Part shown: positions 15,206-16,630 of the stretch, one piece after another | How the letters are laid out: each line of letters opens with the position of its first letter | Position numbering within the stretch: the first letter of the stretch is position 1 | Source: Promethearchaeati archaeon SRVP18_Atabeyarchaeia-1 | GTDB lineage: Archaea > Asgardarchaeota > Atabeyarchaeia > Atabeyarchaeales > Atabeyarchaeaceae | Reading direction: 5' to 3' | Assembly (NCBI GenBank): GCA_037308085.1 | Contig: CP147779.1 | Location: 640,001-704,000, forward strand | Length of the DNA: 64,000 nucleotides | Program-made: the position numbers and the translations under genes | Notes under the pieces: generated by a model | Told to the model about the DNA's origin: nothing | What the model saw: the letters and a program-made list of their open reading frames with translations, nothing else | Database searches by the model: none

Positions 15206-15231
15206 CACTATGCGATTGGCACTGTAGCTTT

Positions 15232-16523
15232 GGTTCTGTCAAGTCCTCGGTTGATGACCGTTTGAGCTGACTTCTCCGCTTTGGCTCACCGCCTTGTTTA
15301 AGGGTCGGATCACTGCTACACGTGCGGAGCGATCTAGGGTGAACCGCACCCTTTCATCTTGGATTTTGAGCATGTTCAAGCAGGCATTCACGTGGCGGTT
15401 TGTTCCGCAGCATTCTAGAGTTTTCGCTTTCGGGTCTTGCATCACGCACCCACACACCGCGCATACCCTAGAAGTGTTCCTCGGGTTTACCTTGATGGTT
15501 TGGACTCCTTCCCAGAGAGCTTTGTACTCGATGAAGCCTTGCAGCTTGCGGAAGCTCCACGAGTTCAGCCTCCGCTTCAGCCTCTTGGAGTGTATGCTAA
15601 TCCTTTGAATTCTCCCATTGAAGTTGTTGGCGCTTAAGACCTTGCGGTTGACTGCCTTGCGGATGTATGTGAGGTCTTCGAGGATAATGCCTTGCTCTCT
15701 ATTTTTCGCTTGCCTAACTATGGCTGAACTCACTTGATGCAGAACCGTGTTGACCTTGTTGTCCTGATTGGTGTACCAGTTTCTCTGAATCCTCTTCGCC
15801 ACCCGCCTGTCCTTAGCGTACTTGGCTTGAGCCCTTCGAACACGTTCGAAGTACCCGTGCCTAACCTCTGAAACCGCCGATAAATCATGGCTCTCGATAG
15901 TCAGTTCTCCACTTTCTTCTAGGCTAGCTCCATCAATTGAGCGCTCGTTCGTGTCGTACGCAACGTAGCTCTTGGGCTCGGTAACCTCAGCGATCTTCGA
16001 GAAAACCACTGTAACCGTGCAAGCAGTCAATGTGACCGAGCCTAACTTCAGCGAGGCGTCCGACAGGAACTGTACCGCCCTCTTATGAAAGGGGATGTAG
16101 AAGTACTCTCGCGGCTTGGTGGGTATCCTCAGCCTGCCGTCAACAACCCTATAACCCTGATTCCCAAGTTTAGCCGTGAGTTTCGTGGCCCTCGGCACTC
16201 GAATGCTCTGTCGCCTTCTCTTCGCTTTCCGGTGATTCTTCAGGATGGCAGTGGCAGCCTCGATGGCTGAGAGGCTGTACCAAGTGTGGAGACCGAAATC
16301 GCCTAGCCGGCGGTACACCTCGCTCTGCAGGCTGAACCTTGAACTAATGTTCTTCTCCAGACCTACACGGATGCAATAGTTAACCATGCTCTTGAAGGTC
16401 TCAAGGAGACCAAGGACACTGCTCGTAGGCTCGTATGGCATCTGCACCGCTTTGATTGCCTGCATAAAGTCATGTAAGCTAAACCACTCATTTAAACCCA
16501 CTAACCGAAGACTTGACAAAACG
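15232..16523 (-). mobile_element. tnpB-only element with 20-bp TIRs and perfect 8-bp TSD (copy 2)
   Basis: GTTCTGTCAAGTCCTCGGTT (15233-15252) / AACCGAAGACTTGACAAAAC (16503-16522), 18/20; GTAGCTTT duplicated at 15224-15231 and 16524-16531. Confidence 0.88.
15239..16465 (-). CDS. tnpB: TnpB RNA-guided nuclease family protein (intact ORF)
   Basis: RuvC-I YVAYDTN, Ruv[37 protein letters not shown]; ATG about 26 nt after TTTAAA TATA box inside the left end. Confidence 0.93.
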
Positions 16524-16630
16524 GTAGCTTTTAAGTAGTTTCAGACTTTATGTATAGTACCAGACATGGTTCTTTTCGGCTTCGGAGCGGGAGACTGCCT
16601 GGAAGTGTGCTGAGCTAACTACTGGGAGGT

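Follow-up and report, generated by a model that had tools for sequence, protein, structure and literature searches.

TnpB genes between IS6-like inverted repeats with 8-bp target duplications in an Asgard archaeon

A 64,000-nucleotide stretch of DNA (the window; genome positions 640001-704000) from the 2.81-Mb single-contig genome of the Asgard archaeon SRVP18_Atabeyarchaeia-1 was found to carry two copies of a 1,292-bp unit in which a tnpB gene lies between 21-bp inverted repeats flanked by 8-bp duplications. These copies, their homologues in the same genome and the corresponding sites in related genomes are best explained, taken as a whole, as non-autonomous IS6-type elements whose only cargo is tnpB and a 3' guide-RNA scaffold; we consider this explanation probable. 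It rests on ends shared with elements that encode an IS6-like transposase, on target duplications, on element-free sites in relatives, and on a one-sided motif next to the insertions that follows the nuclease.

Copy 2 (window positions 15232-16523) carries tnpB on the minus strand and copy 1 on the plus strand. Their alignment, at about 80% identity, begins and breaks off exactly at the ends of the elements. Their inverted repeats follow the consensus GGTTCTGT...CGGTT (n = 12 copies). The initial annotation of the window had described 20-bp repeats reading C-GTT. Its coordinates stood; the length is 21 bp, the 12-copy consensus begins with GG, and the C-GTT reading reflects mutated tips at the tnpB 5' end. 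The same annotation had pointed out direct repeats of 8 bp around both copies, and these are present, perfect for copy 2 (GTAGCTTT) and matching at 7/8 positions for copy 1 (TCACCGCG/TCAGCGCG). It was also right that the centres of the repeats differ between the copies, copy 2 having a second end type (GGTTCTGTCAAGTCYTCGGTT), and that neither copy contains a transposase gene, tnpB being the sole open reading frame (ORF) cargo. The features of the window are collected in the table, in which IRL and IRR denote the inverted repeats on the tnpB 5' and 3' sides, TAM a target-adjacent motif, G001 a relative of the same genus, and G002 'Candidatus Atabeyarchaeum deiterrae' Atabeyarchaeia-2, the closest named relative, also an Asgard archaeon.

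Table. Features of the tnpB elements and of a miniature element in the window (window coordinates).
Feature	Position	Strand	Remark
Copy 2, target-site duplication GTAGCTTT, tnpB 3' side	15224..15231	.	8-mer single at the orthologous loci in G001 and in G002
Copy 2, IRR, end type B	15232..15252	-	Contains the tnpB stop codon; forms the 3' arm of the terminal hairpin
Copy 2, predicted omegaRNA scaffold	15232..15400	-	Overlaps the tnpB 3' end, terminates at the IRR tip; compensatory changes in 6 of 35 family-1 pairs
Copy 2, tnpB, intact, 408 aa	15239..16465	-	Likely start ATG 16465; stop within the repeat
Copy 2, TTTAAATG, candidate archaeal TATA box	16489..16496	-	23 nt upstream of the ATG, just internal to IRL; position kept in all family-1 copies; function inferred
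Copy 2, IRL	16503..16523	-	Mutated tip, CGTTT in place of GGTTC
Copy 2, target-site duplication GTAGCTTT, tnpB 5' side	16524..16531	.	Perfect repeat
Copy 2, CTTA (tnpB strand), candidate TAM	16532..16535	-	Immediately precedes the 8-mer; reads TTTA at the empty site of G001
Copy 1, TCTA, candidate TAM	4498..4501	+	TTTA in the empty G001 site
Copy 1, target-site duplication TCACCGCG	4502..4509	.
Copy 1, element, end type A	4510..5801	+	IRL 4510-4530, IRR 5781-5801; tnpB split into three open frames
Copy 1, target-site duplication TCAGCGCG	5802..5809	.	7/8 against TCACCGCG
Miniature element, 261 bp, end type B	33143..33403	-	IRL, TATA-like box, omegaRNA-like 3' part, IRR; no ORF; flanking 8-mers unmatched

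Both copies belong to a family (family 1) with 11 members in the genome, at 69-100% protein identity. Nine of these 11 are flanked by 8-mers matching at 6-8 of 8 positions; the exceptions are one copy with an internal deletion and one heavily decayed pseudogene. A second tnpB family (family 2), 34-39% identical to the family-1 TnpB P0001, is represented by four copies, three with duplications of 7-8/8 and the fourth truncated and with unmatched flanks. Read in the tnpB orientation, every copy has the layout 8-mer, GGnnCTGT...CGGTT, interior, AACCG...ACAGAACC, 8-mer. Three end types were distinguished: A (GGTTCTGTTACCTCTGCGGTT), B (GGTTCTGTCAAGTCTTCGGTT, as in copy 2) and C (GGTTCTGTTAACTCTTCGGGT, family 2). 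Type B is common to copy 2, to six miniature elements of about 260 bp in this genome, and to a transposase-bearing element in G002. The right repeat conforms to GGTTCTGTTACC... in 11 of 12 copies, and the tips of the left repeat are partly mutated. GG tips and a CTGTT motif, the cTGTt of IS6 repeats, are found in the 21-bp ends. The internal 'caaa' motif of IS6 is absent, positions 10-16 being CCTCTGC, AGTCTTC or ACTCTTC; some metagenome relatives do show GGTTCTGTTGCA at this position.

The genome as a whole holds about 40 tnpB-like matches, of which some lie within IS6-type ends and others are associated with Y1 enzymes or with serine recombinases, at least three kinds of carrier in all. Further type-A-like ends followed by GGCATGTTTTCA-like sequence were noted at genome positions 704572, 763237-763617, 2346131, 2365328, 2479689 and 2685309. 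These resemble the left ends of the family-2 elements of G001, the 4-mers upstream of them are mostly of the TTG kind, and one of them is a 381-bp miniature element.

A metagenome scan with a single protein brought up relatives at 62-77% identity that had GGTTCTG-type ends with TT(T/A) upstream; three of them showed exact 8-bp duplications. At 43-52% identity all metagenome homologues closed with CAGAACC right after the stop codon; these are single copies, and their left ends could not be placed. Among distant homologues from other archaeal genomes (27-37% identity), a simple search of single copies revealed no GGTTCTG-type ends. One metagenome contig (L089) carried a 43%-identical tnpB ending in GCAGAACC, with flanks AACCCTCA/AACCCTTA (7/8) and no recognisable left repeat; it may be a one-ended or decayed element.

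Comparison with relatives provided direct views of the sites before insertion. The genes flanking copies 1 and 2 adjoin each other in G001 and G002, where the element is absent, so that the empty alleles with a single 8-mer for which the initial annotation had suggested searching do exist. The orthologous site of copy 2 in G001 reads ...ATAGCTTT-TAAA..., with the 8-mer present once, as it also is in G002; that of copy 1 in G001 reads TTTA-TCAGTGCG-TATACT, again with a single 8-mer. The T-rich motif is retained at both empty sites. For two further copies the element was likewise missing from the orthologous sites, and all four insertions examined postdate the split from the same-genus relative. 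A single 8-mer at the empty sites indicates insertion of the DDE type, by a staggered cut, and rules out insertion of the IS200/IS605 or IS607 type. In wetland metagenomes, contigs span both junctions of copy 2; none joins across the element, and no empty allele was seen there.

A candidate source of the transposition enzyme was found in the same genome. Two loci matched Pfam DDE_Tnp_IS240 with 64-65 bits (cut-off 27), and both proteins matched the whole of the NCBIfam IS6 model, with 121 and 116 bits. One lies in a 4.4-kb element (genome 614149-618567; L033:650-5068) whose two 21-bp ends are both identical to type A, the consensus of the tnpB elements, and which is flanked by the duplication TGAAAAAA/TGAAAAAC. 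In addition to a 251-aa IS6-like transposase, encoded at L033:2004-2759, it carries small genes for an HxlR-like winged-helix protein, a DUF5678 protein, a 272-aa protein of unknown function and a protein resembling aspartyl proteases. The other element (genome 549276-555829; L034:2277-8830; 6.55 kb) has type-C-like ends, with three and one mismatches, and a perfect duplication, TGGAGAAC; its transposase, of 383 aa and encoded at genome 549899-551047, has N-terminal SWIM and zinc-ribbon domains ahead of the DDE domain. Further cargo of this second element is a 995-aa type IIG restriction-modification protein of the Eco57I/MmeI-like kind, a case of a defence gene carried by an IS6-type element. 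One such transposase each was found in G001, in G002 and in one more distant genome. The unit in G002 (L084:7171-13329) is bounded by type-B-like ends, GGTTCTGTCAAGTCTTCGATT and GGTTCTGTAAAGTCTTAGGTT, and flanked by a perfect duplication.

The transposase never adjoins tnpB and is located in separate cargo transposons of 4.4-6.6 kb. The initial annotation had proposed that tnpB was captured by a non-autonomous IS6-type element moved in trans, and had suggested a search for an IS6 transposase with matching ends; the shared ends, the duplications and the empty sites support its proposal. That the tnpB units are IS6-type non-autonomous elements is very likely. We also hold with good confidence that they are mobilised in trans by IS6-like enzymes, whose binding to the ends and catalysis are predicted from sequence.

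The initial annotation had further put forward YYTA as a candidate TAM, on the strength of two insertions. The four nucleotides that immediately precede the 8-mer on the tnpB 5' side were tabulated over all copies, the tabulation that it had recommended. In family 1 (n = 12) they were CTTA (4), TTTA (3), TCTA (2), CTAC (1), TTTC (1) and CTCA (1); in family 2 (n = 8, including copies from G001 and G002) they were CTTG (3), TTTG (2), ATTG (1), CATG (1) and TTGC (1). Seven of the 10 copies that had not been used to propose the motif fitted YYTA (P = 1.8e-12), against a background of 1.06% in the genome and 1.5% in local flanks. The motif is one-sided: TTA occurred on the tnpB 5' side in 7/12 family-1 copies and on the opposite side in 1/12, and the corresponding values for TTG in family 2 were 6/8 and 0/9. 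The last base, A or G, separates the families (Fisher 5e-5). Family-2 copies in G001 bear GGTTCTGTTACCTCTTCGGTT, the same as some family-1 ends, yet have TTG upstream, which indicates that the motif tracks the nuclease and not the end type.

The last ~130 nt of the elements fold into a structure with strong covariation. This was assessed on an alignment of the miniature elements with eight family-2 ends, with 500 shuffles and slid partners as controls. In a consensus of 31 pairs, 96.8% of cells were paired, as compared with 87.7% in the shuffles (reached in 0/500) and 26-45% with slid partners, and there were 39 double-change cells against 12.4 in the shuffles (again 0/500). The last helix joins the right repeat to the adjacent 12 nt on its inner side and covaries with end type. 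In family 1 a homologous hairpin shows a double GG/CC swap, and six of the family's 35 pairs are compensatory. G-U pairs favoured the sense strand; energies from alifold did not separate the strands. These features point to an inferred omegaRNA with a guide derived from the flank at the element end. For copy 2, the first eight nucleotides of the guide are predicted to be the 8-mer at 15224-15231, read on the minus strand. On balance we lean towards this TAM and guide model, which is drawn from the sequence patterns described.

The six miniature elements have no ORF. Their last ~130 nt are 72-80% identical to family-2 3' ends, they have a TTTATATA box just inside the IRL, and one of them (genome 868840-869096) is flanked by a perfect duplication, TCATGTGA. 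They give the impression of hitch-hikers that bring only a guide RNA and rely on both the transposase and TnpB.

The TnpB of copy 2 matched the Pfam Cas12f1-like TNB domain with 53 bits. Its RuvC-I aspartate (D189) and RuvC-II glutamate (E281) are conserved across 49 homologues, and its RuvC-III motif is NRH instead of DRD. All family-1 copies whose frame can be read have (D/G/N)RH in the place of DRD, which family 2 retains.

We propose the following course of events. IS6-like transposases would bind the shared ends and move both the tnpB elements and their RNA-only miniature derivatives in trans, and insertion, as the empty sites show, is through a staggered cut that yields the 8-bp duplication. 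Transcription of the scaffold would run through the right end into the flank, giving a guide composed of the duplicated 8-mer and the flanking sequence downstream of it. The TAM would be the T-rich motif that immediately precedes the 8-mer on the side of the tnpB 5' end, YTTA in family 1 and YTTG in family 2, and the element-free allele, TAM-8mer-flank, would then be a perfect target for TnpB. The occupied allele would not be a target because AACC precedes the guide-matching DNA. TnpB might then cut empty chromosome copies, repair would copy the element in, and this drive would favour insertions adjoining a TAM. Transposition of IS6 elements is replicative, and drive on empty chromosome copies consequently fits them better than 'restorative' homing.

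A number of observations weigh against this model. Because IS6 does not excise, the published rationale of 'restorative homing' is not directly applicable. Both IS6-like transposases score just below the NCBIfam cut-off of 125, and that of the type-A element is missing the N-terminal zinc region (126 aa) which the other possesses. No transposase-bearing unit with type-B ends was found in this genome, so the cognate enzyme of copy 2 may be missing here. ATTA or CTTG borders one side of two of the three transposase-bearing elements that carry no tnpB. An Rfam search with the scaffold gave no family at E up to 1, and one RNA run contained only a 141-nt contig from a diverged copy, expression of the elements described here not being seen. 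Family-1 TnpB has histidine for the RuvC-III aspartate; D-to-H RuvC-III branches have been described and argued to stay active (PMC10691335), and the family-1 variant is probably active as well. Finally, nothing points to mobility at present: the family-1 copies are only 77-86% identical to one another, and the IRL tips are degraded, with 10 of 60 positions (first 5 nt) differing from GGTTC at the IRL (for example at window 16519-16523 and 4510-4514), as compared with 1 of 60 at the IRR. This is well in excess of the decay of the flanking duplications (about 10%), and could be due to immobilisation or to an RNA-derived constraint on the 3' end only.

The last of these points are also those in favour of a family of fossils, that is, old IS6-like insertions that are no longer mobile and in which tnpB is kept, if at all, for another role. 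Five of the 11 family-1 copies have stops or deletions. Six copies retain full open frames with the conserved catalytic D, E and H, however, all four insertions examined are younger than the split from the same-genus relative, and most duplications still match at 7-8/8. We regard a fossil family as unlikely, at a level that nevertheless calls for it to be kept in mind.

Passive carriage of tnpB has also to be considered, with the one-sided T-rich motif due to the target preference of the IS6-like transposase or to a general preference for AT-rich DNA. The ATTA and CTTG next to transposase-bearing elements, and the looser TT(T/A) of the metagenome relatives, would fit such a preference. It does not account well for the strict orientation of the motif relative to tnpB, since symmetry would be expected of a DDE dimer that acts on near-identical ends, nor for a last base that follows the TnpB family despite the same end sequence. 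Moreover, the motif shows no enrichment in the local flanks, where TTA stands at 1.0%. We therefore judge this explanation improbable. A bolder idea gives TnpB an active part in insertion. A family-specific TAM that sits precisely one duplication length away from the left end might reflect more than post-insertion selection: TnpB docked on a TAM could bring the IS6-like transposase into position there, which would be a guide-independent precursor of the RNA-guided transposition associated with CRISPR. The promoter-plus-omegaRNA miniature elements would then exploit both proteins in trans. We give this idea little credence.

The two ends might instead base-pair, in RNA or in single-stranded DNA, and not serve as transposase binding sites. 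Four positions differ between copies 1 and 2 in both arms at once, and the three mismatches of the arms would be G-U on the sense strand, as such pairing would have it. Over 12 copies, however, the IRL/IRR mismatches include T versus C and other non-wobble types, and the two versions turned out to be end types A and B, each of which occurs on other elements too. The covariation that holds is local, within the terminal hairpin of the right repeat. Pairing between the element ends was rejected on this wider set of copies, and we consider it very unlikely.

That these are ordinary IS200/IS605 or IS607 elements with incidental inverted ends, moved by the three Y1 TnpA and three serine recombinase enzymes that the genome encodes, is scarcely credible, since those genes adjoin other, distant tnpB genes (19-36 bits to P0001), the two groups make no duplication whereas here a single 8-mer was duplicated on insertion, and the symmetric 21-bp repeats are common to the DDE-bearing elements; a Y1 or serine TnpA acting on these ends, which the initial annotation had named as evidence against its proposal, was thus not what was found.

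The IS6-type non-autonomous elements favoured here extend a known association. The initial annotation had presented them as a prokaryotic parallel to Fanzor capture by DDE transposons; as a first case this does not hold, since TnpB within DDE transposons of other families has already been published. Six DDE-associated TnpB branches (DDE-1 to DDE-6) are described, all with inverted terminal repeats, and solo TnpBs share ends (PMC10691335). These branches (Altae-Tran 2023) resemble the present elements in having tnpB within an inverted-repeat transposon with its 3' end near the transposon end, and in having solo tnpB units that share ends with transposase-bearing units (PMC10691335). The main text, as far as it was available, names only IS630 (PMC10691335). 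Here, by comparison with what that text describes, the transposase sits in separate cargo transposons and never beside tnpB, and neither the TAM-8mer-IRL geometry nor RNA-only miniature elements appear in that text. A 2026 review lists ISL2, IS630 and IS1031 as the DDE partners of TnpB and does not name IS6 (PMC13565253).

With the IS6 family (IS26, IS257, ISS1) the present elements share the 8-bp duplication, the GG tips, the cTGTt motif and a transposase of the DDE_Tnp_IS240 type, which in some members has an N-terminal zinc finger (PMC7986276). They differ from it in architecture. Classic members are 0.7-0.9 kb and encode the transposase only (PMC7986276), whereas here there are 1.29-kb tnpB-only units, RNA-only units and cargo units of 4-6.6 kb; the missing internal 'caaa' and the sub-threshold NCBIfam scores set them apart further. 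A review of the family records a single member that carries a passenger gene, and two miniature inverted-repeat elements, or MITEs (PMC7986276).

The right-end omegaRNA, the flank-derived guide, the T-rich TAM 5' of the target and the empty site as target, all predicted here from comparison of copies, are features of IS200/IS605 and IS607 elements (ISDra2, IS608, IS607) as well. Inverted ends and target duplications are both missing from those elements, which insert right behind the TAM and depend for their movement on excising Y1 or serine enzymes. In the present case the candidate TAM is separated from the element by an 8-bp duplication, and the presumed mover is a DDE enzyme of the replicative type. 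Fanzor elements in eukaryotic DDE transposons (PMC3627910; Saito 2023) likewise place a TnpB-family nuclease between inverted ends, with duplications made. They are eukaryotic or viral, and their 5' duplication has been read as part of the TAM (PMC13565253), whereas the present elements have their candidate TAM beyond the duplication, which itself would supply the first 8 guide bases.

A whole-word literature search for TnpB together with IS6 returned only papers on resistance plasmids, and a paper on Atabeyarchaeia mobile elements mentions, in the portion available, five 'IS-like transposons' from 1.3 kb upwards, without detail (PMC11529989). An IS6 partner, the TAM-8mer geometry and RNA-only miniature elements appear to be unreported in the literature searched. 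TnpB within DDE transposons is a known kind of association, and IS6 is an added transposon partner.

TnpB is the ancestor of Cas12, and its presence in transposons is usually explained as an aid to homing for the cleanly excising IS200/IS605 and IS607 elements. Here, in Asgard archaea, it rides a type of DDE transposon that copies rather than excises. The geometry of TAM, duplication and flank supports a gene-drive role for TnpB that is independent of excision. The two families, with YTTA or YTTG motifs and with D-to-H or canonical catalytic sites, form together with the RNA-only miniature elements a natural system for testing this role, and the IS6 family would gain cargo-carrying archaeal members.

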